DNA from: Dehalococcoidia bacterium
GTDB lineage: Bacteria; Chloroflexota; Dehalococcoidia; UBA2979
Length of the DNA stretch: 64,000 nt
Direction of reading: 5' to 3'
Assembly (NCBI GenBank): GCA_964291495.2
Contig: OZ219871.1
Location: 1-64,000, forward strand
The notes under the pieces are model-generated. The model was not told the DNA's origin, ran no database searches, and saw only the letters and a program-made list of their open reading frames with translations. The first letter of the stretch is position 1. Each line of letters starts with the position of its first letter. Both the position numbers and the translations under genes were made by a program. Below, one piece after another: positions 10,346-24,254 of the stretch.

Positions 10346-11593
10346 CTAGCCGAGCTCCGGCGTCGGTCGCTCGTCCCACACCACCTCGCGTTCGACGAGC
10401 GCGTCGATGCCCGCGGCGTCGAGGCCGAGCAGCCCGGCGAGCAGCGCCCTCGAGTCCTGGCCCATGTCCGGCGAGGTGCCCTGGATCGCGCCGGGTGTGC
10501 GGGAGAGCTTGATCGGCGTCTCCACCAGCGGGAGCGTGCCGAGCGTGTGGTGCTCCACGGGCTTGAGCATTCCGCGCGCCCCCACCTGCGGCTGCGCCGC
10601 GGCCTCGGCGATGTTGTTGAGCGGCCCGCAGGGGATCTCGTACGGCGTCAGCCGCTCCACCCACTCGGCCGTGGTGCGCTTGCGGAACGCCTCGTTGAGC
10701 AGCGGTTCCAGCTCCGCGTGGTTCGCCGAGCGCGCGTGCGCCTCGGCGAAGCGCGGGTCGTCGATCAGTTCCACGACATCCAGCTCCGAGCAGAGCAGGG
10801 CCCACTGGTTCGGCACGCCCCAGGCGAGGGCGACGACGATGTAGCCGTCCGCGGTGGGAAACGCCTGGAACGGCACGGCCCAGGAGTGCCGCGTCCCCAG
10901 CGGCTGCGGCAGCTGGCCCGTCAGGTGGTAGCGCAGCAAGGCGTTCTCCTGGATCGCCAGCTGGCAGTCCAGCATCGAGATGTCGACGAGCTGGCCGCGG
11001 CCCGACGTCTCGCGCTCGCGCAGCGCCGCGAGGATGCCGACCGCGCCAAACAGCCCGCCCGCGATGTCGGCGAGCGAGAGGCCAGGCTTGAGCGGTGGCC
11101 CGTCCGGCTCGCCGGTCACGGACATCACGCCGCCCGCGCCCTGGATCACCACGTCGAGGGCCGGCCGATCGCGCATCGGCCCGGTCTGGCCGTAGCCGGA
11201 GATGGCAGCGTAGATCAGGCCGGGATGGACCTCGGCGAGCCGCTCGTAGCCGAGGCCGAGGCGCTCGAGCGTGCCCGGCCGGAAGTTCTCGACCAGCACG
11301 TCGAACTGCGGCACGAGCTGCAGGAACAGCTCGCGCCCCTCCTCCTGCTTGAGGTCGATCGCGATGCTGCGCTTGCCTCGATTGACGCTGAAGAAGTAGC
11401 CGGACTCGCCGTCGAGGAGCGGGCCAGTGGTGCGGGCCACGTCGCCGAAAGGCGGGCGCTCGCACTTCACCACCTCCGCGCCGAGGTCGCAGAGGATCAT
11501 CGTGCAGTACGGGCCGGCGAGCACCCAGCTCAGGTCCAGCACGCGCAGGCCGCTCAGCGGACCGCCGCTCATCGAGGATCCTTCCGCCATCAC
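10346..11593 (-). CDS. CaiB/BaiF family (class III) CoA-transferase
   Basis: PLSGLRVLDLS..LAGP, NRGKRSI, ENFRPG, catalytic Asp in LADIAGG. Confidence 0.92.
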   Translation of the reverse strand: MMAEGSSMSGGPLSGLRVLDLSWVLAGPYCTMILCDLGAEVVKCERPPFGDVARTTGPLLDGESGYFFSVNRGKRSIAIDLKQEEGRELFLQLVPQFDVLVENFRPGTLERLGLGYERLAEVHPGLIYAAISGYGQTGPMRDRPALDVVIQGAGGVMSVTGEPDGPPLKPGLSLADIAGGLFGAVGILAALRERETSGRGQLVDISMLDCQLAIQENALLRYHLTGQLPQPLGTRHSWAVPFQAFPTADGYIVVALAWGVPNQWALLCSELDVVELIDDPRFAEAHARSANHAELEPLLNEAFRKRTTAEWVERLTPYEIPCGPLNNIAEAAAQPQVGARGMLKPVEHHTLGTLPLVETPIKLSRTPGAIQGTSPDMGQDSRALLAGLLGLDAAGIDALVEREVVWDERPTPELG

Positions 11594-12501
11594 GCACTCG
11601 CGTCGTCGCGCCGCACGAGGCTGAGCCCGCCCCGCAGGGCGACGTACACCCCAGCGAGGAGCAGCGCGGCGCCGAGCGCCTCAAGCAGTGTAGGCCGCTC
11701 GCCGAGGAGCGTCGCGCCGATCGCGGTCGCGCCGACGGGCTCGCCGAGCACGGCGACGGCGACGACCGCCGCGGGCAGCGAGCCGAGCGCCCAGGTCAGC
11801 GCGCCGTGCCCCATCAGCTGCGGCACCAGCGCGAGCAGCACGATGAAGATGTAGGCCTCGGCGCCCCAGCCGAGCAGCGACTCGCCGCTGACGGCCAGCG
11901 CGACAAGTAGTGCGACCGCGGCGATCGCGTTGACCAGCGCGGCGTAGCTGACGTTCGAGAGCCTCGCGCGGACGCGCCGCCCGGCGACGAGGTAGATCGA
12001 GGCGAAGACGGCTCCCAGCGCCGCGAACGCGTCGCCGCGCAGCGAGACGCCGTCGCCGAGGTCCGAGCCCGCCAGCAGCAGCGCTCCGGCGGCGGCGATG
12101 GCGATCGCGGTAAAGAGGGCGCGCGTCGGTCGCTCCCGCAGCCACAGCCAGGCGCCGAGGCCGACGATCAGCGGCTGGGTCGCAACGATCGCCGTGCTGG
12201 CCGCGATCGAGGTGTCCTGCAGCGAGGCGACCCAGAAGCCGAAGTGAGCGGCGAGCGCGAGCCCCGCGAGCATCAGCAGGGCCACGTCGCCGCGCTCGAG
12301 CAGCCGCAGCTCCTCGCGGCGGCGCAGCCCCGAGAGCGCGAGCAGCGGGAGGGCGGCGAACGTCATGCGCAGCGAGGCCACCACCAGCGGCGGAGCGTCC
12401 GCCAGCCGGATCAGCGGCGCGGCCCAGGAGAGTGCAGCCACGCCCACGAGCAGCACGATCCACTCGTGCGACGCCACGCGCCCAAGCCACGCCCTGTCCA
12501 T
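11590..12501 (-). CDS. DMT/EamA family transporter (copy 2)
   Basis: About ten hydrophobic helices, LGEPVGA motif; close paralog of 12538-13458. Confidence 0.88.
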   Translation of the reverse strand: MDRAWLGRVASHEWIVLLVGVAALSWAAPLIRLADAPPLVVASLRMTFAALPLLALSGLRRREELRLLERGDVALLMLAGLALAAHFGFWVASLQDTSIAASTAIVATQPLIVGLGAWLWLRERPTRALFTAIAIAAAGALLLAGSDLGDGVSLRGDAFAALGAVFASIYLVAGRRVRARLSNVSYAALVNAIAAVALLVALAVSGESLLGWGAEAYIFIVLLALVPQLMGHGALTWALGSLPAAVVAVAVLGEPVGATAIGATLLGERPTLLEALGAALLLAGVYVALRGGLSLVRRDDASA

Positions 12502-12537
12502 GGGGCGACGCTAGCAGGTGCGCCCGCTAACGGGCGC

Positions 12538-13458
12538 TCACGAGGGCGCTCCGCCCCCATCCTCGCGCGTTACGAGGCGCAGCCCGCCGCGCAGCGCGAC
12601 GTAGACACCCACCAACAGCAGAGCGGCGCCGAGGGCCTCGAGCAGCGTCGGCGGCTCATCGAGGAGCGTCGCGCCGATCGCGGTCGCGCCCACCGGCTCG
12701 CCCAGCGCGGCCACCGCGACGACGGCGGCAGGCAGCGAGCCGAGGGCCCAGGTGAACGCCCCGTGCCCGAGGAGCTGCGGCAGCAGCGCGAGCAGCACGA
12801 TCAGGATGTAGGCCTCGGCGCCCCAGCCGAGCAGCGACTCGCCGCTCGCGGCCAGCGCGATCAGCAGCACGATCGCACCGATCGCGTTGGCCAGCGCGAA
12901 GTAGCTGACGTTCGAGAGCCTCGCCCGCACACGCCGCCCGGTCACGAGGTAGATCGAGGCGCAGACGGCGCCCAGCGCCGCGAAGGCGTCGCCGCGCAGC
13001 GAGACACCGTCGCCGAGGTCCGCGCCCGCCAGCACCAGCGCTCCGCCCGCGGCGATGGCGATGCCGATCAGCAGCGGGCGCGTCGGCCGCTCGCCGAGCG
13101 CGACCCAGGCGCCGAGCCCGACGATCAATGGCTGCGTCGCGATGATCGCGGTGGCCGCGGCGATCGAGGTGTCCTGCACCGAGGCGGTCCAGAGCCCGAT
13201 GTACCCGGCGAGCGCCAGCCCCGCGAGCGCCAGCAGCGCCGCGTCGCGTCTGCCGAGGAGGCGCAACTCCTCGCGGCGGCGCAGGGCGGAGACCGCGAGC
13301 AGCGGGAGCGCCGCCAGCACCAGCCGCAGCGAGGCGATGACGAGCGGCGGGGCATCCGTCAGGCGGACCAGTGGCGCGGCCCAGGCGAACCCCACCACTC
13401 CGGCGAGCAGCACGATCCACTCGCGCCCCGCCACGCCCTCGCGCCAGGCCTTGTTCAT
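12538..13458 (-). CDS. DMT/EamA family transporter (copy 1)
   Basis: Same architecture as 11590-12501, long near-identical DNA stretches. Confidence 0.88.
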   Translation of the reverse strand: MNKAWREGVAGREWIVLLAGVVGFAWAAPLVRLTDAPPLVIASLRLVLAALPLLAVSALRRREELRLLGRRDAALLALAGLALAGYIGLWTASVQDTSIAAATAIIATQPLIVGLGAWVALGERPTRPLLIGIAIAAGGALVLAGADLGDGVSLRGDAFAALGAVCASIYLVTGRRVRARLSNVSYFALANAIGAIVLLIALAASGESLLGWGAEAYILIVLLALLPQLLGHGAFTWALGSLPAAVVAVAALGEPVGATAIGATLLDEPPTLLEALGAALLLVGVYVALRGGLRLVTREDGGGAPS

Positions 13459-13508
13459 GCCGCGACGCTAGCAGGTGCTGCCCCTACCGGCCGGGTGACG
13501 GCAGAGCG

Positions 13509-14432
13509 CTAGCTCTCGCCCCCGTGCTCGGCGAGGAGCGCCTCGATCATCCTGCGCAGCTCGCCGCTCCTTGGCTCCGCGAAGAGCATGTCCACGAACT
13601 TATCCGAGTTGGGAGCGATGGCCGCGTAGTTGGGGTGGTAGCGGAAGCCGAGGCTCATCGCGAACTCCTTGTCCTCGCGGATGATCCAGTTGAGGATCAC
13701 GAAGTTCACCCGGTCCTGGAATTCGAGTCGAAGCGCGTTCACGACGTGCCGTACACGGTTGCAGGCCGGTCACCCGGGGTCATCGACGACGACGAAGGTC
13801 GGCATCCCGTTCACCGGCAGCCACGCCCCCGTGGACACGACCCGGTTCGGTGAAAGCTCGTCGCGCGACACTGTGACAGCCGGCCCGGTCGGGAAGTCGT
13901 AGCTCGGCTCGGGCGTCTCGGTCGGCGTCGGTTCGGGCGTTGCTGTCGGTGTCGGCTCAGGCGTCGCGGTGGGCGTTGGCTCTGGCGTTGCCGTCGGCGT
14001 CGGCTCTGGCGTCGCGGTTGGCGCTGGCTCCGGCGTCGCCGTCGGGGTTGGCTCCGGCGTCGCGGTTGGCGTTGGCTCTGGCGTCGCGGTTGGGGTCGGC
14101 TCAGGCGTCGCGGTCGGCGTCGGCTCAGGCGTCGCCGTCGGTGTCGGCTCAGGCGTGGCGGTGGGCGTTGGCTCGGGCGTTGCGGTCGGTCTCGGCTCGG
14201 GCGTTGCGGTCGGTCTCGGCTCGGGCGTTGCGGTGGCGGTCGGCGTCGGCTCGGGCGTAACGACTATGGTCGGCTGCGGCGTGGCCGTTGCTACGACGGC
14301 CGAGGGCGTCGTCGTTGCCTCGGGGGTCGGTTCAGCCTCGTCGTCGCCCGCGCAGGCCGCCGCCAGCGCCACGCAGGCAAGGGCCAGGACCGCGAGGCGC
14401 GGGGCTGGCATGTGACGCCGGAGGCGCGGCAT
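13509..14432 (-). CDS. Thioredoxin-fold lipoprotein, predicted selenoprotein (UPAC; TGA at 13770-13772), long Pro/Thr/Glu stalk
   Basis: ORFs 13770-14453 and 13509-13742 are in one frame: ..[35 protein letters not shown]..; lipobox LAAAC; GAGG RBS before ATG 14432; SECIS-like hairpin. Confidence 0.82.
13732..13750 (-). promoter_or_regulatory. Putative bacterial SECIS hairpin
   Basis: GGCACGU-CGUGA-ACGCGCU, loop at +27..+31 after the UGA, one A-C mismatch. Confidence 0.7.
13905..14256 (-). repeat. 24-bp coding tandem repeat (PEPTPTAT)n
   Basis: More than a dozen imperfect PTATPEPT units in the translation. Confidence 0.93.
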
Positions 14433-14439
14433 CAGCACC

Positions 14440-14883
14440 TCAGACCGGCTCAATCACCTGGATCGTGCTTGCCTCGACGAGCTGCACGCACTCGCAGGGG
14501 GTCATGCCGGGAAGCGCTTCCTGACCGGGCTCCATCCGCTCGAGGCTGTTCGCGATCGAGGCGATCTGCTCGCGCGAGCGTTCCAGCTCCTCGATGCGGC
14601 CGTCGAGCTGCTCGACGGCCTCGGCGAGCGTCCGGCTGAGGACCGTGCGGATATCGCCGCAGGTACCGTCGTGCGCGAGGCCGAGCACCGTGCCCATCTC
14701 GTTGAGCGACAGCCCGAGGCCGCGCAGCCCGACGGCGAGCCGCAGGGTCTCGACATGCTGCTCGGAGTAGTCGCGATACCCGTTCGCACGGCGTGGCGCC
14801 GGGGGCAGAACGCCCTGCCGCTCGTAGAAGCGGATTGTGTCGGCGCTGAGGCCGCTGGCGGTGGCGGCACGCTGGATGTTCAT
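14440..14883 (-). CDS. MerR-family heavy-metal-type transcriptional regulator
   Basis: [23 protein letters not shown]; Cys in GTCGD and C-terminal PCEC. Confidence 0.9.
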
Positions 14884-14952
14884 CCCGTTCGCCCGCTCCC
14901 GTTCTCGTTCGCCGTTTAAGGATACGCCGCCGCGAGGCGCTCGTGGCCCCGG

Positions 14953-15474
14953 CTATCCACCCTGGCCGGCGATCGCCTCGTCGAGGAGCTCGCGCAGCGC
15001 CACCTCGCGCAGCGGACCGAAGGTCGTCTTCAGCACGTCGCTGGCGTCGGCAGTGACGACCGCGAAGGACGGGTGCCGGCCGACGCCCAGCTCCCTCGCC
15101 AGGTCACGCTCCGCCGATTCGTCGAAGTCGAGGACCACGAAGTTGACCCGGTCCTGGTATTCCTCCCGAAGCCCGTGCACGACGGGCCGCGCGATCGCGC
15201 AGGACGGTCACCAGATCGCATCGACGAAGACGAGCGTCGGCTTGCCGTTCGCGGGGACGTAGGCGCCGGTGGAGTCGACGCGGTCGCCCGGAAACTGGTA
15301 GCCGGCTGGCACGAGCACCGCCGGCCCGGTGGGGAAGCCCGCTCCCGCCGCCGTTGCGTCGGACGACGCCGCCGATGACGCGGGAGCGCCCTCGTCGCCA
15401 CCGGAGCAGGCGGCGACTAGCACCGCCCCGGCGAGGAGCGCGAACACGATGCCGAGAGCGCGCTGGATGCTCAT
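14953..15474 (-). CDS. Thioredoxin-fold lipoprotein, predicted selenoprotein (WUPSC; TGA at 15208-15210)
   Basis: ORFs 15208-15474 and 14953-15180 are in one frame: KPTLVFVDAIW-TGA-PSCAIARPVVHGLREEYQDRVNFV..HP; lipobox VAAC. Confidence 0.87.
15170..15188 (-). promoter_or_regulatory. Putative bacterial SECIS hairpin
   Basis: GGCCCGU-CGUGC-ACGGGCU, loop at +27..+31 after the UGA. Confidence 0.8.
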
Positions 15475-15562
15475 GCGGTCCGGACCTTCCTCGCGGGGGT
15501 GGCTGCCTGTCGGGGATCTCCGGGATCAAGGATATGACGCGACGCGGTTGTGCGGCGCGCGG

Positions 15563-16153
15563 CTAGCCCTCGTAGCGCGAGATCAGGGCGTCGAGCATGC
15601 CGCGCAGCTTGGGCTCGCGCTGCACCCCGAAGACCCTCGCGATCACCTCGGCCGAGTCGGGCGCGATCAGCAGGTAGGCGGGCGTCCCCGAGTAGCCGAG
15701 CGCTCGCGCCAGCCTGTCGTCCTCGCGGTCGTCGACATCCAACACCACGAAGTTCACCCGGTCCTGGTATTCCGTTCGGAGCCCATGCACGATGGGCCGC
15801 GCGATCTCGCAGAACTGTCACCAGATCGCATCGACGAACACCAGGGTCGGCTTGCCGTTCGAGGGCAGGTAGGCGCCCGTTGAGGCGACGCGATCCTCGG
15901 GCGGCGCGTAGCCGGCGGCCACGAGCACCGCGGGGCCGGTCGGGAAGGCATAGCTCTCCGGAGTCGGCGTTGGCGATGGCGTCGGGGTCGGCGTCGCCTC
16001 GGGAGTCGCGACGACGGTCGGCGCGGGCGTCGCGGCGGGCGCCGGCGCGTCCTCGCCGCCCCCGCCCGTGCAGGCGGCGCCGAGCGCCGCGCAGGCGAGA
16101 ACCAGCAGTGCGAGGATCGGGATACGGAAGCGGCGTGCGCGGGATTGCAGCAT
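15563..16153 (-). CDS. Thioredoxin-fold lipoprotein, predicted selenoprotein (WUQFC; TGA at 15818-15820)
   Basis: ORFs 15818-16399 and 15563-15790 are in one frame: KPTLVFVDAIW-TGA-QFCEIARPIVHGLRTEYQDRVNFV..GTP; lipobox LGAAC; TATGAT 7 nt before ATG 16153. Confidence 0.87.
15780..15798 (-). promoter_or_regulatory. Putative bacterial SECIS hairpin
   Basis: GGCCCAU-CGUGC-AUGGGCU, loop at +27..+31; A-U pair replaces the G-C pair of the other copies. Confidence 0.8.
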
Positions 16154-16190
16154 CGCTTCGATCATACGCCCGCGGGCCTGCCGCGACACG

Positions 16191-16817
16191 CTACTCGTAG
16201 GCGCCGCCGGCCGTGTCCGCATCGGCCACGCCGACCTCGAGCAAGTGGCCGACGACGGTTCCGAGGGCGGTCGTGCGCAGGATCCCGTCACGGTCGATGA
16301 AGAACGTCGCGGGCAGCGCGCGCACCCCGTAGCGTCGCGCGACCTCGCCACCGGACGTATCGAACATGATCGGGAACGTGAGCCCGAACTCCTCGACAAA
16401 GGCTTCGGCCGCGGCGCGCGTGTCCGTCGGCAACAGGTTCACGGCGAGGATCACGAGGTCGTCGGGACCGTCCGGCCCGCGCTCCTCCCACAGTTCCTGG
16501 AAGTCCGGCATCTCCCGGTGGCAGGGCACGCACCAGCTGGCCCAGAAGTTCAGCACGACGGTCTTGCCTCGATAGTCGGAGAGCCGCACCGCGCCGCCCC
16601 CGAGCGCGTTCAGCAGGAAGTCCGGCGCGGGCCGGTCGACGTCCACGAGAGCGTCGTCCAACAGCCCGATCGTGGCCCGCCGCGGCGTCGGTGTTTGCGT
16701 GGGTGTCGCCGTCGCGACGGCGGTCGCGGTCGCCGGCGGCTCGGCGCCGCCGTCCCCGCAGGCGGCCGCGATCAGCAGCAGGCAGGCAAGCGCCGAGAGG
16801 GCGAGGCGCCGCAGCAT
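16191..16817 (-). CDS. TlpA/ResA-family disulfide reductase lipoprotein
   Basis: [41 protein letters not shown]; lipobox IAAAC. Confidence 0.92.
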   Translation of the reverse strand: MLRRLALSALACLLLIAAACGDGGAEPPATATAVATATPTQTPTPRRATIGLLDDALVDVDRPAPDFLLNALGGGAVRLSDYRGKTVVLNFWASWCVPCHREMPDFQELWEERGPDGPDDLVILAVNLLPTDTRAAAEAFVEEFGLTFPIMFDTSGGEVARRYGVRALPATFFIDRDGILRTTALGTVVGHLLEVGVADADTAGGAYE

Positions 16818-16841
16818 GACGACCTCGGGCCGCCGTTCGGT

Positions 16842-17438
16842 CTAGCCGCCACCGCCGGCGTCCGCCTTCTCCACGCCGGCGGGGAGCAGGTTGCCGAAGA
16901 CGGGGCCGTAGTTGACCCCGCGCACCACGCCGTCACGGTCGATGAAGAACGTCGCCGGCAGCCCCCGCACGCGGTAGCGCTCCGCCACCGCGCCGTCCGC
17001 AGTGTCGAACAGCACCGGGAACGTGAACCCGTTGCCCTCGATGAACTTGCGGGCATCGGTCATCGTGTCCTGCACGAGGAAGTCGAGCGCGAGCATCACG
17101 AGGTCGTCCGCGCCGTCCGCGCCGCGCTCATCCCACAGCTCCTGGAACTCGGGCATCTCCTCGCGGCAGGGCGGACACCAGCTCGCCCAGAAGTTGAGCA
17201 CCACTGTCTTGCCGCGGAAGTCGGAGAGCATGACCGTCTCGCCATCGAGGTCCGTCAGCGCGAAGTCGGGCGCGGGCTGATCGATGGCCACCGACAGGTC
17301 GTCGAGCAGGCCGATCTCGACCATCACGCCCTCGCTCGTCATGCCCTCGTCGACGTGCGGGTCGATGAACTCGCGCTGCACGAAGAGCGCGGCGATCACC
17401 GCCACGATCAGGAAGGCCAGCCTTCTGTTCTCCTGCAT
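16842..17438 (-). CDS. TlpA/ResA-family disulfide reductase, membrane-anchored
   Basis: [27 protein letters not shown]-terminal hydrophobic anchor. Confidence 0.92.
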
Positions 17439-17486
17439 ACCCGCACCCCTTCCCGATCACGCCCGCGGACCGGGCGCAGCCCCCCG

Positions 17487-18824
17487 TCAGGAGCGATCCA
17501 CGTCACTCTCGAGGATGACACGCGTCTCCGGCTTGAACACCGCCCAGGCGAACCAGAAATGGTTGCCGGAGACGAGCGGCGTCAGTTGCTGCCCCGCCAG
17601 CGGCCCCGACACCGCGCGGCCGAGCACGTCCCACGTGCTGCCCGTGCCAGCGTCGACGATCGCGCCGTCGCGCGCCTCGAAGCGCAGCCGCTCGCCGTCG
17701 AGGAACGGGCTGAACGCGCCGGCGGAGCCGACGTTGCGGCTGCCGATGATGAACGCCTCGTCGAGGGCGGAGACCTGCCCCGGCTGCCAGAAGGCGACGA
17801 CCTGCTCGCCGCCGACCTCGGCCTCGATGACCACGAGTTCGCTCAGCGCGCTGAACGGGAACGCTGCCGTCTCGCCTCCGAGTTCGAGCGTCAGCACGCG
17901 CTCTTTGGCGGAGAGCTGGTTGTTGAACTCACCGACGGGGAAGAGCGTCCTGCCGCTGGAGTCGTAGAGGACGTAGGGATTCTCGCCGTAGTTCCGCGCG
18001 TGGCCGGTCTCGCGGCTGAGCACGACGCCGTCCTCGAAGGCCGCGCGGAACTCCCCGAAGGAGACGAGCTGGGCGGGCAGGAACTCCAGCACCACGCCCG
18101 TGTCGCGTCCGACGATCGCCTCGCCCGTGAGCTGTTGCCACAGCGTCTCGGTCTGGCGGTCGTACATGATGAGATCGCTGTTGCGCAGGCTGCCGGAGAC
18201 GCCGAACGTGCGCTCCTCGCCGTTCACGACGCGCGAGAAGGCGATCGCCGAGTTGCAGAGGGGGCAGTAGGTCACGATCACCGGCTCGCCGCCGACCACG
18301 TCGTTGACGATCTCGTGCCAGGTCAGGATCTCCAACGGGTAGGCGCGCGCGTCCCCGTTGCGCTCGAAGGCGATCACCGGCGCCTCCGCCGAGAGCCACT
18401 CCGAGGCCTCCTCGATCGTCAGGAAGCGCGGCTCGTCGATCGCCGGGATCGCGTCGGGCGGGATCACCGACCTGATCTCGGCGAGGTTCACCGAGCGCTT
18501 GCTGAGATCGATCCTCGGGAAGTTGCCCTCGAGGATCCGCGCCAACTGCCGTTCGACAGCGTCGGCCGCATCGCGCAGCGGCGTGGGCGTAGGCGTCGGT
18601 GCGGGCGGCGTCGCGGTGGCGGCCGGCGCCGTCGCGGTTACCGTCGCCTCGGGGGTCATCGTGGGCGACGCCTGCGCGGTCGCGGCGGAGGTGGCGGCGG
18701 CCTCAGGCGCGGGGTCGGGCTGAGCGTCGCTGCCGCAGGCCGCGAGGAGCGCCGCAGCGGCGAGGACGAGGCCCGGCCATGCCTGCAGCCGCACCCCCCT
18801 CCGCGCACGTCCGGCGTCAGCCAT
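17487..18824 (-). CDS. DUF3179 domain lipoprotein (Cys form, CPLC)
   Basis: PPDAIPAIDEP, AYPLEILTWHEIVND, VTYCPLCNS, YDRQTETLWQQ, FWFAW; lipobox LAAC. Confidence 0.88.
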   Translation of the reverse strand: MADAGRARRGVRLQAWPGLVLAAAALLAACGSDAQPDPAPEAAATSAATAQASPTMTPEATVTATAPAATATPPAPTPTPTPLRDAADAVERQLARILEGNFPRIDLSKRSVNLAEIRSVIPPDAIPAIDEPRFLTIEEASEWLSAEAPVIAFERNGDARAYPLEILTWHEIVNDVVGGEPVIVTYCPLCNSAIAFSRVVNGEERTFGVSGSLRNSDLIMYDRQTETLWQQLTGEAIVGRDTGVVLEFLPAQLVSFGEFRAAFEDGVVLSRETGHARNYGENPYVLYDSSGRTLFPVGEFNNQLSAKERVLTLELGGETAAFPFSALSELVVIEAEVGGEQVVAFWQPGQVSALDEAFIIGSRNVGSAGAFSPFLDGERLRFEARDGAIVDAGTGSTWDVLGRAVSGPLAGQQLTPLVSGNHFWFAWAVFKPETRVILESDVDRS

Positions 18825-19049
18825 GCTGCCTCCTCGCGTCCGCCCTCGGCCACTTCCGAGGCGGGAACGCACTGCGTTCGTGCGATGCGGAAACCTCCAT
18901 GATCCGCCCTCCCGGGCCTCCATTCCATGATACGTCGCGACCCCTCTACGGACCGCGCCGGCGGGCTTCACGAGGCCGGGACTGGTGGCCTCGATCCGGC
19001 GAGACTACGATGGCGCCGATCGCGGACAAGCGGCGCGGGGAGGCGGCGG

Positions 19050-20900: not shown

Positions 20901-23900
20901 GTGCCGCTGCGTCGCGCGCTCGCCCTGCCCCTCACCGTCCTCGTGCTGTCGCTCGCCGCCGCCCTGACGGCGTGCACGGACGACCCGGTCGAGCCTCCCG
21001 CACCGCCCGCGACGGCGACCGTCCAGCCGACGCCGGCTGCCACGGCGACACCCCCGCCGACGCCAGCCGCAACGCCCACGCCCACGCCCACGCCTACGCC
21101 CACGCCCACGGCGACGGCAACGAGGACCGCGACGCCCTCGCCGACCGCGACGGCCACGCCCATCCCTACGCCGACCGCCACCGCAACGGCGTTGCCAACC
21201 CCAACGCCCACGCCGACCGCGACCCCGACGCCCGAGCCAGCAGCAAGCCCGACGCCCTCCCCCACGACCTTCCGCTACACCACCTACGACACGAGCGGCG
21301 CCGTCGCCGAGCCCGGCAGCTACGCCTTCCTCGCCGACCCCGCCGACGCCTCGAGCGTCGTCACGACGTACGAGGGCCTGCGCGACGGCACGGCGAGGGC
21401 GCTGCGCATCCACGCCACGGACGCGGACGGCGTCTCCCGCGCCGCCTTCCTCGACACCGTCGAGGTGGGCGACCTGTTCGAGTGGCGGCAGGCCGAGGAC
21501 TGCTTCGTGCGCTACACGGTGACGGAGCTCCTACCCGACCCCTCGGGGACGCCTCGGAGGCTGCTCGGCGTCGAGTGGATGACCTACGCCTTCACGGGCT
21601 GCAGCGGGCCGATCGCGGCGGAGGCCGCAGTCACGGTCGACTGGGGGGAGTTGCCGGACCTCGGCGGTACCAGTCTGACGGCGCCGGTGGTGCACGGGAT
21701 TTACCAGCTCGTGCCAGCAGGCTGGACCGGGGAAACCGAGGAGCCGGAGCTGCATTCGTCTGCCGTCACCTCCTACGAGAACCCCATCCGGACCGACGAC
21801 CCTGCTGTCGCGAGGACGCTCCCCTACTGGCGCGACCCGGAACTGCCGGACGGCTGGACCCTCGATTGGGTCACCAGTGGCGGCGTGCCCGACCCCGCTT
21901 ATGGGTATTGCGCGACGTACCTCACGGAACCCCGGCCCTCGGCGCTGGACGGAGGGGCGCTGCGGCGCGTCCGGGGAGTCGAGGTGTGTGGCTATCACGC
22001 CAGCGCCAGGCTGGATGTCGAGGCGGCGTCCTGGCGCAACGGCTCAAGTGTATCGGAGACCCGCACGATCGCGGGTAGACCGGCCCGCATCACCTACAGC
22101 CCGCCAGGGCCAAATTACGACCGGCGCGCCTACATCCGCGTGTGGGTGTACGACCCTGCGACGAAGAGCGAGTACTTCCTCATTGGAGGCGGTCTTCTTC
22201 GCGGGAACAACGTTGATCCGGTGATTGCAATCGCACGCAGCCTCTTCGAGCCTCCGAACCCGCTCGCACCCCCCACCACCTTCCGCTACACCACCTACGA
22301 CACGACCGGCGGGGTCGCCGAATCCGGCAGCTACGCCTTCCTCGCCGACCCCGCCGACACCTCGAGCGTCGTCACGACGTACGAGGGCCTGCGCGACGGC
22401 ACGGCGAGGGCGCTGCGCATCCACGCCACGGACGCCGACGGCGTCTCCCGCGCCGCCTTCCTCGACACCGTCGAGGTGGGCGACCTGTTCGAGTGGCGGC
22501 AGGCCGAGGACTGCTTCGTGCGCTACACGGTGACGGAGCTCCTACCCGACCCCTCGGGGACGCCTCGGAGGCTGCTCGGCGTCGAGTGGATGAGCTACGC
22601 CTTCACGGGCTGCAGCGGGCCGATCGCCGCGGAGGGCGCCGTCACGGTGGACTGGGGGGAGTTGCCGGATCTTGGCGGGACCAGCCTGACGGCGCCCGTG
22701 GTGCACGGCATCTACCAGATCGTCCCTGCCGGGTGGAAGGGCGCAACCGTGGAGCCGTTGGTCGACTTCAGTGGGCCGGACCAGCCTGAGCGCCTTCACT
22801 CGTACGAAACACTTGCCGAGGCGCGCCAGCTCCCCTACTGGCGCGATCCGGCGCTTCCTGAGGGGTGGGTACTCGAGGGCGCCACGATTGGGTTCGAGGG
22901 ACCGCGCTACGGCTACTGCGCGATCTTCCGTACGGAAGAACGGACAAGGCGAAACAACGAGGTCTACCGCAACTACGGCTTTGATATCTGCGGTCTGCAC
23001 GTCACCGGGTGGTATCACCCGGAGATCGCATCGTGGCATGACGGGGCCAGCGTCAGGGAGACCCGTGTGGTCGCCGGTCGCCCTGCCATTGTCATCTACA
23101 GCCCCGAAGGACCGGGTAGCAGACCCGACTTCCCCATCAACATCTGGGTCTACGACCCGGAGACGGAGACCGATTATCACCTCGGTGCAGCCGACGGGAG
23201 CATCAGCGGCTCGAACATCGATGCGGCACTGGCGATCCTCCGGGGCCTGTTCGAGCCTCCGAATCCGCTGACGCTAGAGACCACCTTCCGCTACACCACC
23301 CACGACACGACCGGCGCCGTCGCCGAGCCCGGCAGCTACGCCTTCCTCGCCGACCCCGCCGACACCTCCAGCGTCGTCACCACGTACGAGGGCCTGCGCG
23401 ACGGCACGGCGAGGGCGCTGCGCATCCACGCCACCGACGCCGACGGCGTCTCCCGCGCCGCCTTCCTCGACACCGTCGAGGTGGGAGACCTGTTCGAGTG
23501 GCGGCAGGCCGAGGACTGCTTCGTGCGCTACACGGTGACGGAGCTGCTACCCGGCCCCTCGGGGCCGCCTCGGAGGCTGCTAGGCGTCGAGTGGATGACG
23601 TACGCCTTCACTGGCTGCAGCGGGCCGATCGCGGGGGAGGAGGCTGCCGTCACGGTCGACTGGGGCGAGCTACCTGACCTCGGCGGGGCGAGCCTGACCG
23701 TTCCGGTCGTGCACGGGGCGTTTCAACTTGGCCCGAGAGGTTGGACCGGTGCCGAAATGCCGCGCGAGAGACGGAATCCACCGAGCTACTCCGACATCAA
23801 CCCCGTCTACACGACCAGTGTCGCAGAAGCGCAACACCTTCCCTACTGGCGCGATCCGGTGTTGCCCGCCGGATGGACACTCCACGAGGCGGCTAGCGGG

Positions 23901-24254
23901 GGGAACGACCAGCCCTCATACGGATACTGCGCGATCTACTTGACGGAGAGGGGTGGGCGGGGCGTCGAGATCTGCGCGGGCCACGTGAGCCTGAGGTTCG
24001 CGTGGCGAGTGACGACCACGGAGACAGGAGGAGTCACCGAAACGAGAGTGATTGGTGGCTACCCAGGACTGATCCGGTACTGGCCCCCGCACCCGGACAG
24101 GAGACCCAACACGGCGATTCAGGTTTGGGTCTATGACGCAGCAGCCAACAGCGCGTACACAGTTCGTGGAATCGACCCAACCGTCACTGGACGCAACGTC
24201 GATCCCGTCATCTCGATCGCGCGCAGCTTGTTCGAGCCTCCGAACCCGCCGTAG
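20901..24254 (+). CDS. Large surface lipoprotein with Pro/Thr stalk and three ~335-aa tandem modules, function unknown
   Basis: Lipobox LTAC, (PT)n linker, three units each running TTFRYTT...LFEPPNP. Confidence 0.85.
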   Translation: MPLRRALALPLTVLVLSLAAALTACTDDPVEPPAPPATATVQPTPAATATPPPTPAATPTPTPTPTPTPTATATRTATPSPTATATPIPTPTATATALPTPTPTPTATPTPEPAASPTPSPTTFRYTTYDTSGAVAEPGSYAFLADPADASSVVTTYEGLRDGTARALRIHATDADGVSRAAFLDTVEVGDLFEWRQAEDCFVRYTVTELLPDPSGTPRRLLGVEWMTYAFTGCSGPIAAEAAVTVDWGELPDLGGTSLTAPVVHGIYQLVPAGWTGETEEPELHSSAVTSYENPIRTDDPAVARTLPYWRDPELPDGWTLDWVTSGGVPDPAYGYCATYLTEPRPSALDGGALRRVRGVEVCGYHASARLDVEAASWRNGSSVSETRTIAGRPARITYSPPGPNYDRRAYIRVWVYDPATKSEYFLIGGGLLRGNNVDPVIAIARSLFEPPNPLAPPTTFRYTTYDTTGGVAESGSYAFLADPADTSSVVTTYEGLRDGTARALRIHATDADGVSRAAFLDTVEVGDLFEWRQAEDCFVRYTVTELLPDPSGTPRRLLGVEWMSYAFTGCSGPIAAEGAVTVDWGELPDLGGTSLTAPVVHGIYQIVPAGWKGATVEPLVDFSGPDQPERLHSYETLAEARQLPYWRDPALPEGWVLEGATIGFEGPRYGYCAIFRTEERTRRNNEVYRNYGFDICGLHVTGWYHPEIASWHDGASVRETRVVAGRPAIVIYSPEGPGSRPDFPINIWVYDPETETDYHLGAADGSISGSNIDAALAILRGLFEPPNPLTLETTFRYTTHDTTGAVAEPGSYAFLADPADTSSVVTTYEGLRDGTARALRIHATDADGVSRAAFLDTVEVGDLFEWRQAEDCFVRYTVTELLPGPSGPPRRLLGVEWMTYAFTGCSGPIAGEEAAVTVDWGELPDLGGASLTVPVVHGAFQLGPRGWTGAEMPRERRNPPSYSDINPVYTTSVAEAQHLPYWRDPVLPAGWTLHEAASGGNDQPSYGYCAIYLTERGGRGVEICAGHVSLRFAWRVTTTETGGVTETRVIGGYPGLIRYWPPHPDRRPNTAIQVWVYDAAANSAYTVRGIDPTVTGRNVDPVISIARSLFEPPNPP
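21264..24251 (+). repeat. Three ~1-kb intragenic direct repeats; first ~440 bp nearly identical, remainder diverged
   Basis: Units start near 21264, 22275 and 23280 (ACCTTCCGCTACACCACC). Confidence 0.92.

Follow-up and report, generated by a model that had tools for sequence, protein, structure and literature searches.

Here I describe a 19-nucleotide (nt) hairpin that recurs 19 nt 3' of an in-frame UGA codon in each of three neighboring genes and that, judged from sequence comparison, is very probably a genuine, family-specific bacterial selenocysteine insertion sequence (SECIS) of exported thioredoxin-fold selenoproteins. The genes lie in what I will call the window, meaning the whole stretch of DNA that was analyzed (64,000 nt, positions 1 to 64,000 of contig OZ219871.1, assembly GCA_964291495.2, from a Dehalococcoidia bacterium of GTDB lineage UBA2979). 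The hairpin is a family instance of the general bacterial SECIS and not a consensus of the lineage; what speaks for it is base pairing beyond what the encoded peptide supplies, compensatory change along a family of homologues, loss of the structure in orthologues that carry cysteine (Cys) in place of selenocysteine (Sec, U), and a host genome equipped with the Sec machinery. A SECIS is to be expected in every bacterial selenoprotein gene, and finding one here is unsurprising; its interest lies in how plainly its imprint can be read in a coding sequence.

Three genes and their hairpins

The genes, their UGA codons and the hairpins are listed below, all translations being made with TGA read as U and all hairpin energies being computed on the 21-nt segment +19..+39 (+1 being the first base after the UGA), so that they may differ from those of the published procedure.

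13509-14453, minus strand: gene 1, predicted lipoprotein-like thioredoxin-fold selenoprotein, active site G-U-PAC, start codon uncertain
14953-15474, minus strand: gene 2, predicted thioredoxin-fold lipoprotein selenoprotein, W-U-PSC
15563-~16165 (start 16165 or 16153), minus strand: gene 3, predicted thioredoxin-fold lipoprotein selenoprotein, W-U-QFC
13770-13772, minus strand: in-frame UGA (putative Sec codon) of gene 1; at this alignment position 59 further homologues have TGA and 2 Cys orthologues have TGC
15208-15210, minus strand: in-frame UGA (putative Sec codon) of gene 2, from the sequence and its translation
15818-15820, minus strand: in-frame UGA (putative Sec codon) of gene 3, from the sequence and its translation
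13732-13750, minus strand, loop 13739-13743: hairpin of gene 1, GGCACGU-CGUGA-ACGCGCU, A.C mismatch at the fourth pair, -5.1 kcal/mol
15170-15188, minus strand, loop 15177-15181: hairpin of gene 2, GGCCCGU-CGUGC-ACGGGCU, -11.2 kcal/mol, present in the minimum free energy (MFE) fold
15780-15798, minus strand, loop 15787-15791: hairpin of gene 3, GGCCCAU-CGUGC-AUGGGCU, -9.8 kcal/mol, present in the MFE fold

Each gene has one in-frame TGA, read from the sequence and its translation. A first-pass annotation, made from the letters of the window, had described a stem of 6-7 base pairs (bp) at +20..+38 with a loop at +27..+31 in all three genes, and its strings and positions stand; what does not stand is a continuous stem in gene 1, which consists of 3 bp, the A.C mismatch and 3 bp again (fold.(((.(((.....))).)))., z -0.25). 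The same annotation had pointed to a G-C pair that becomes A-U between genes 2 and 3, and this is indeed what the codons record, GTC turning into ATC (Val to Ile) together with CAC into CAT (His, synonymous). In gene 2 the hairpin encodes R-P-V-V-H-G-L, residues 50-56 of the modeled domain, which fall inside a helix (alpha-1, residues 44-60), and the loop CGUG(C/A) merely spells the Val-Val-His/Asn of that helix throughout the family. Because the hairpin is lodged within the coding sequence of helix alpha-1 (R-P-V-V-H/N-G-L), RNA pairing would dictate the use of rare codons and even the choice of amino acids. A covariance model of 60 family hairpins (R1) scored gene 2 at 69.9 bits, gene 3 at 64.2 and gene 1 at 53.9, with E-values in the genome of 4e-15, 1e-13 and, for gene 1, 7e-11.

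Covariation and codon choice across the family

Of 41 related genomes searched, 22 gave a total of 48 strong matches (E<=2.7e-24), every one with an in-frame TGA; the family is present in each of the 18 other species of the genus, and the metagenome loci are of the TGA form in 22/22 cases, adding no further Cys form with DNA. The codon alignment was drawn from related-genome clusters, from a one-genome-per-species scan (in which related loci belong, by their titles, to Dehalococcoidia or Chloroflexota metagenome-assembled genomes (MAGs)) and from metagenomes, and comprises 60 Sec-form sequences (56 distinct) without gaps, with 15 more from metagenomes to give ~75 in total. Among the 60, 96.7% of the pair cells are paired, compared with 90.9 ± 0.5% when partners are shuffled (0/500 shuffles reach the observed value) and 5.6-52.6% when partners are slid by 1-3 columns; cells changed on both sides number 24 against 3.9 expected (0/500 shuffles), compensatory changes are found at 4/7 pairs, and RNAalifold independently recovers the same helix. 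The loop G-U at positions 2-3 (columns 37 and 38) is invariant in 60/60 sequences, and 53/60 hairpins of the family have a dG<=-7.5 kcal/mol.

Read on a tree built from the rest of the domain, with the hairpin and TGA columns left out, the compensatory changes have ~nine separate origins: G-C became A-U on two occasions (once in L090, once in the nine-member clade to which gene 3 belongs), the fifth pair went from C-G to U-A five times or more, with U.G intermediates, and single origins account for C-G to U-A at the third pair and for U-A to G-C at the pair closing the loop. Every one of these compensations joins a synonymous to a nonsynonymous site, namely CCC/TCC (Pro/Ser) with GGG/GGA, CCC/CCT with GGG/AGG (Gly/Arg), and GTC/ATC (Val/Ile) with CAC/CAT, a coupling that is not explicable by co-evolution at the protein level.

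How much of the pairing the peptide gives for free was gauged with a recoding null, in which synonymous codons are resampled by the usage of this genome while the peptide is kept, and P is the frequency of reaching at least the observed number of pairs. The peptide alone yields 3-5/7 pairs; P is 0.014-0.03 for gene 2, 0.0004 for gene 3 and 0.12-0.13 for gene 1, and over the family it lies below 0.05 in 49/60 sequences. The codons themselves are telling, the Arg codon of the hairpin being CGG in 44/46 sequences (20% in the genome), the Pro codon CCC in 31, CCT in 8 and CCG in 0 of 46 (the genome uses CCG for 61%), and the Gly codon GGG in 32, GGA in 5 and GGC in 0 of 46 (genome GGC 72%).

Fit to the bacterial SECIS model and the Sec machinery

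The bacterial SECIS model of Zhang and Gladyshev (2005), in the part of a 2026 review that summarizes it (PMC13188914), has an upper stem of 4-16 bp capped by a loop of 3-9 nt, a G in the first two loop positions that is usually followed by G or U, 16-37 nt from the UGA to the apical loop, and an MFE of -7.5 kcal/mol or lower. The loop of 5 nt, on 7 pairs in genes 2 and 3 and 3+3 pairs in gene 1, is within these limits, as is the spacing of 26 nt between UGA and loop, and the first-pass statement that the early G demanded of a SECIS loop is provided by CGUG was right, G and then U standing at positions 2-3. With energies taken on the 21-nt segment, genes 2 and 3 lie below the energy limit; gene 1, at -5.1 kcal/mol, does not, and departs from the model in this respect alone. 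The genome to which the window belongs encodes a tRNA-Sec (C6:655918-656014), SelA and SelB, as well as a SelD whose gene itself contains a TGA. The likeness to bacterial SECIS elements of the Escherichia coli fdhF type is thus a stem-loop in the coding region just 3' of the Sec UGA, with a small loop containing G-U and a 7-bp upper stem, in a host that has tRNA-Sec, SelA, SelB and SelD; the difference is that the hairpin sequence is peculiar to one protein family. That the hairpin acts as a SECIS, as first proposed, is consequently supported by model fit (apart from the energy of gene 1), covariation, the Sec machinery and the loss of the structure in Cys orthologues described below.

If this reading is correct, the products of genes 1-3 would be exported, lipid-anchored thioredoxin-fold oxidoreductases in which Sec replaces the first active-site Cys (U-x-x-C). 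The hairpin would form in the mRNA as the ribosome nears, its apical loop with the invariant G-U would be bound by the C-terminal winged-helix domains of a SelB loaded with GTP and Sec-tRNA(Sec), and the UGA would then be decoded as Sec and not as a stop.

Several candidate structures around the same site were considered and set aside. An outer helix, GUCCUG/CAGGAC, that appears in 61-nt folds was dropped since its 5' side varies without compensation in the alignment (judged by eye). A small hairpin at +7..+18 over the Cys codon, proposed by RNAalifold, was dropped as a general feature as well: its pairing of 86.6% compares with 85.3% after a slide of the partners by +2, its median recoding P is 0.17 (22% of sequences below 0.05), and its sequence persists in Cys forms. 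Rfam gave no family match to the region at E<=10 on the SECIS side, and no SECIS family; its twister-sister match at 15139-15220 of the window on the plus strand, opposite the gene-2 hairpin, reached 23.4 bits with a gathering cut-off of 34 (E 0.062) and is taken as chance in a G+C-rich palindromic sequence.

Cysteine orthologues and a possible reversion

Two orthologues with DNA (L074 and L076) carry TGC at the position of the TGA, in proteins reading WCPxC...RP(A/I)FHDL that are 63-65% identical to the query alignment, and they provide a natural control. Their hairpin segments have energies of -1.2 and 0.0 kcal/mol, their R1 scores are 17.7 and 12.1 bits compared with 54-70 for the window genes, and they carry the preferred codons CCG and CGC. 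Their genomes gave no match to SelA or to the SelB wing domain and, as the best tRNA-Sec match, 46-47 bits, a level also seen for secondary matches in Sec-using genomes, and two genomes with the Sec form have SelA, SelB and a tRNA-Sec at 73-75 bits. Had the hairpin been equally well kept in Cys homologues of genomes lacking Sec, its tie to the UGA would have been in doubt, and in both such loci with DNA it is lost.

In a large protein collection, the full-length homologues are Cys forms in 20/20 cases, the Gly of H-G-L being found in 0/20 and R-P-x-F replacing R-P-V-V in 18/20, with P0022 and P0023 as Cys forms that retain R-P-V-V-H-S-L. When the protein tree is rooted with an outgroup, the Cys forms fall within the Sec forms, the outgroup branches being 1-6 changes/site long, and the approximately unbiased (AU) test does not reject a single clade of all Sec forms (p 0.46). 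It is conceivable, and I put it forward tentatively, that the Cys clade (WCPxCALTRPIFHxL) represents a Sec-to-Cys reversion in a lineage that lost the Sec machinery, after which the SECIS decayed and V-V-H-G drifted to I-F-H-D/K/R; this idea covers the 2 loci with DNA and 18/20 full-length Cys clusters, which are overlapping sets.

Other selenoprotein genes in the same genome

The first-pass annotation had suggested a lineage-specific SECIS with which the rest of the selenoproteome could be mined. The genome was scanned for all TGAs with open frames on both sides (21,412), which were ranked by codon usage; the top 260 were inspected and 11 candidates were tested against Pfam and NCBIfam, each of the 11 giving a family match that spans U. 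Counting SelD, which the ranking missed because the scan required 25 open codons upstream of the TGA, the genome has at least 12 further selenoprotein genes: FdhA (TIGR01591, E 2.6e-196), the ferredoxin-thioredoxin reductase FtrB, SelD, five genes of the UGSC family, a peroxiredoxin (Prx), a W-U-GVC AhpC/TSA protein, an AhpD/YciW-like protein (C-K-W-U) and a rhodanese-CBS protein. These loci (L053-L063 and L126) are on contigs C1, C2, C5 and C6 of G000, outside the window, and three of the five UGSC genes are fused to a C-terminal region of ~400 residues.

The hairpins of these 12 genes are not those of genes 1-3. Their stems start at +11..+18 and their loops at +16..+25, compared with a stem at +20 in genes 1-3, and the loops read GGUCU in FdhA, GGUC in FtrB, GUG in four UGSC genes, CGUGAU in the fifth, GGC in three genes and UCUC in SelD, that of Prx being ambiguous. 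The comparison with known selenoprotein genes that had been proposed as a check thus goes against a shared element, the FdhA and SelD hairpins differing from those of genes 1-3 in both loop and position. A scan for the proposed pattern (a CGUGN loop at +27 on a stem of 5 or more) matched 2 of 56,622 TGAs, those of genes 2 and 3, and missed gene 1; with its position set free the pattern matched 152 times, at none of the other selenoprotein genes. Of all TGAs in the genome, 22.5% are followed by a generic SECIS-like hairpin. In the genome-wide R1 search only genes 1-3 came in at E<0.1 and the next match was at 0.11 (150 of 8,805 first-look candidates scored), and on the 12 other loci with filters off the best overlap with a true site reached 6.2 bits (E 2.9). 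The proposal to mine the selenoproteome in this way is accordingly not sustained, with 12 other genes that differ and a pattern that finds genes 2 and 3 only.

Beyond this genome, a locus in another family of the class (L030 of G029, minus strand, TGA at oriented positions 1743 and 2418) has two tandem, distant Sec thioredoxin-like genes (W-U-PSC and T-U-PVC) whose hairpins at +10..+28, CGGUCUG-AGUUG-CAGACUG and GCUCUG-AUUUG-CAGAGC, have stems that differ by paired changes. Bacterial SECIS elements are described as lacking conserved features in the portions of two sources that treat them (PMC13326102; PMC12013277), and the presence of different hairpins within one genome agrees with that statement. 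The case is a concrete example of a SECIS pattern that, learnt from one family, does not carry over to the remaining selenoprotein genes of its genome.

Weighing the explanations

Several observations weigh against a family SECIS and deserve to be set out together. The first and last loop bases (C...C/A) are unpaired here and are mostly paired in the published pattern. Single-sequence folding gives z = -1.08, -0.55 and +1.66, no better than shuffles, and the gene 1 hairpin is not used in its 61-nt MFE fold; at 71% G+C in the genome such folding is uninformative, so significance has to be sought elsewhere. The stems are imperfect in gene 1 and in the two relatives nearest to it (L024 at -4.4 kcal/mol, L046_m4557 without the loop-closing pair), gene 1 and L024 fall short of -7.5 kcal/mol with recoding P of 0.13-0.21, and a low-G+C marine clade forms 4-5/7 pairs in the common register, its fold being an 8-bp hairpin that has a bulge and a GUU triloop. 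The recoding null applies the codon usage of the window genome to all genomes; related sequences may pass a partner shuffle without any structure, the caveat for which the tree without hairpin columns was built, and the count of origins on that tree rests on a quick reconstruction with many forks open. Finally, the two genomes of the Cys orthologues, in which SelA and the SelB wing domain were not found, may be incomplete, and as the Cys forms with DNA are one clade of two, they amount to a single evolutionary event.

These points must be set beside what each other explanation would have to accommodate. Were the hairpin a by-product of a conserved RPVVHGL peptide written in G+C-rich codons, devoid of RNA function, the 3-5 pairs that come with the peptide, the SECIS-like hairpins after more than a fifth of genomic TGAs (22.5%) and the unremarkable z-scores would all be expected; it would leave unexplained why rare codons are fixed while the preferred CCG and GGC go unused, why synonymous sites change jointly with their partners, why 49/60 sequences beat the recoding null, and why structure and peptide both dissolve in the Cys forms, and I consider it extremely improbable. 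A selected RNA structure with another job, such as slowing the ribosome for lipoprotein export or stabilizing the mRNA, with Sec inserted by way of something else, would suit the signal-peptide/lipobox-like N-termini (by eye) and a stem whose start is 2-9 nt more distant from the UGA than those of the genome's other selenoprotein genes; here too the probability seems very low, given that no alternative SECIS is supported (the +7..+18 hairpin failing its controls), that the hairpin is lost along with Sec while the Cys proteins retain their signal peptides, and that the loop G-U is invariant.

As for a lineage-wide SECIS consensus (loop CGUG fixed at +27..+31) usable for finding selenoproteins, the fifth UGSC gene (UGSC_e, C5:543984) does have its CGUGAU loop on a GCCCGC/GCGGGC stem, and most hairpins have a G in the first two loop positions, SelD with its UCUC excepted. 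Such a consensus is nonetheless a most unlikely one in view of the different stems and loops, at different distances, of the 12 other genes, of the pattern scans that recovered none of these genes at either fixed or free position, of an R1 search that brought up nothing beyond genes 1-3 at E<0.1 among the candidates scored, and of the distant Sec thioredoxin-like genes of the class with their AGUUG/AUUUG loops at another register. A SECIS particular to this family of thioredoxin-fold proteins is thus what remains by far the best account of the hairpin.

The proteins and their relatives

In all three proteins a low-complexity linker joins a signal-peptide/lipobox-like N-terminus (by eye) to a thioredoxin domain. 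In gene 1 the linker before the domain is long and rich in Pro/Thr/Glu; at 13900-14260 of the window (minus strand) it is made of ~14 tandem copies of a unit between lipobox and thioredoxin domain, repeats that give rise to the GVGSGVAV repeats of a spurious open reading frame (ORF) on the opposite strand. Pfam places PF00085 on gene 2 (32.5 bits, cut-off 23.5) at residues 75-162, covering U89, and on gene 3 both PF13098 (29.9 bits, cut-off 27) and PF00085 (26.4 bits, cut-off 23.5) run across U. Gene 1 has no Pfam thioredoxin match of its own at E<=0.01 and groups with the family via 40-45% identity alone (42% to gene 2 in the family alignment), as sister to L024 in the family tree. NCBIfam has no model over its cut-off for these genes, the generic thioredoxin model TIGR01068 giving 31.7 and 34.5 bits where 96.8 are required. 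An AlphaFold model of the gene-2 domain (46 homologues) is a thioredoxin fold with a predicted local confidence (pLDDT) of 94 and a predicted template-modeling score (pTM) of 0.89, in which a strand at 34-39 and U43 precede helix alpha-1, placing U-x-x-C at the helix N-terminus, and its top matches in the PDB are classical thioredoxins (root-mean-square deviation 1.5-1.7 A, template-modeling score 0.70-0.76 by target).

Selection on the codons 3' of the UGA is that of protein-coding sequence, with ratios of nonsynonymous to synonymous substitution rates (dN/dS) of 0.16-0.72 between orthologues across the genes compared; gene 1 has 0.27 in this region, which indicates that it is still translated. 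In genes 2 and 3, dS to the orthologues is lower 3' than 5' of the UGA in 6/6 pairs (few samples), for example 0.145 downstream and 0.362 upstream or 0.296 and 0.501, as would follow from an added constraint of RNA structure on silent sites.

Thioredoxin (PF00085, UxxC) and thiol:disulfide interchange proteins (PF13098, UxxC) are among the selenoprotein families listed in the section of PMC13188914 devoted to them. Genes 1-3 share with these the thioredoxin fold and the replacement of C-x-x-C by U-x-x-C, and differ in having a signal peptide and lipobox, in the long Pro/Thr linker of gene 1, and in that Dehalococcoidia MAGs have them in tandem, with 1-4 copies per array. With the extracytoplasmic thiol-disulfide oxidoreductases TlpA/ResA there is a likeness as well, since the Cys orthologue P0008 bears the NCBI name 'TlpA family protein disulfide reductase' and two true TlpA/ResA-like CxxC genes adjoin the array; the Sec proteins, however, match thioredoxin profiles and not AhpC-TSA/Redoxin, and their nearest structures are the classical thioredoxins.

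Gene neighborhood

A MerR-family gene (CueR-like, 83.8 bits with a cut-off of 147) is situated between genes 1 and 2, and beyond gene 3 the two TlpA/ResA-like CxxC genes at 16191-17438 are followed by a DUF3179 gene. Gene order is conserved in the genus (10346-18971 of the window; L033-L051) as CoA-transferase, EamA transporter(s), Sec-thioredoxin, in some cases MerR, one or two Sec-thioredoxins, one or two TlpA/ResA-like genes and DUF3179, with the MerR gene in 9/20 fetched regions. The 'VVN'-type Sec-thioredoxin gene is always directly upstream of an EamA gene, and in several genomes the pair has been duplicated as a unit. Farther along the window, at 20901-24254 on the plus strand, is a lipoprotein-like ORF of 1117 residues with three internal repeats of ~335 residues, the first halves of which are near-identical; it has three weak, chance-level R1 matches at ~1 kb spacing.

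Significance

Dehalococcoidia MAGs are reported to have some of the richest selenoproteomes, with 46-49 genes, in the relevant part of PMC13326102. In what was accessible of the literature on Dehalococcoidia/SAR202 selenoproteins and on bacterial SECIS covariation, neither this family nor covariation of this kind was found described, and the BSepDB tables may list the genes. In the protein collection mentioned above, the other 100 among the matches listed after the 20 full-length Cys forms (P0024-P0123) have lengths of 95-155 residues and a query coverage of 21-51%, several under the name 'hypothetical protein', and they are taken to be halves of genes split at the TGA. With the Sec forms seemingly held only as fragments, the family would be under-annotated in Dehalococcoidia MAGs.

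If the tentative reversion were true, it would be a Sec-to-Cys reversion in a thiol oxidoreductase, when in bacteria such reversions are rare and concern mainly FdhA and SelD, according to the pertinent section of PMC13188914, and the family would preserve, in ~nine compensations that alter amino acids, a replicated natural record of how an RNA structure dictates the sequence of a protein. With ~75 homologues, these compensations and a Cys control, it is an unusually clean natural dataset in which to see a coding-region RNA force rare codons and amino-acid replacements upon a protein helix.

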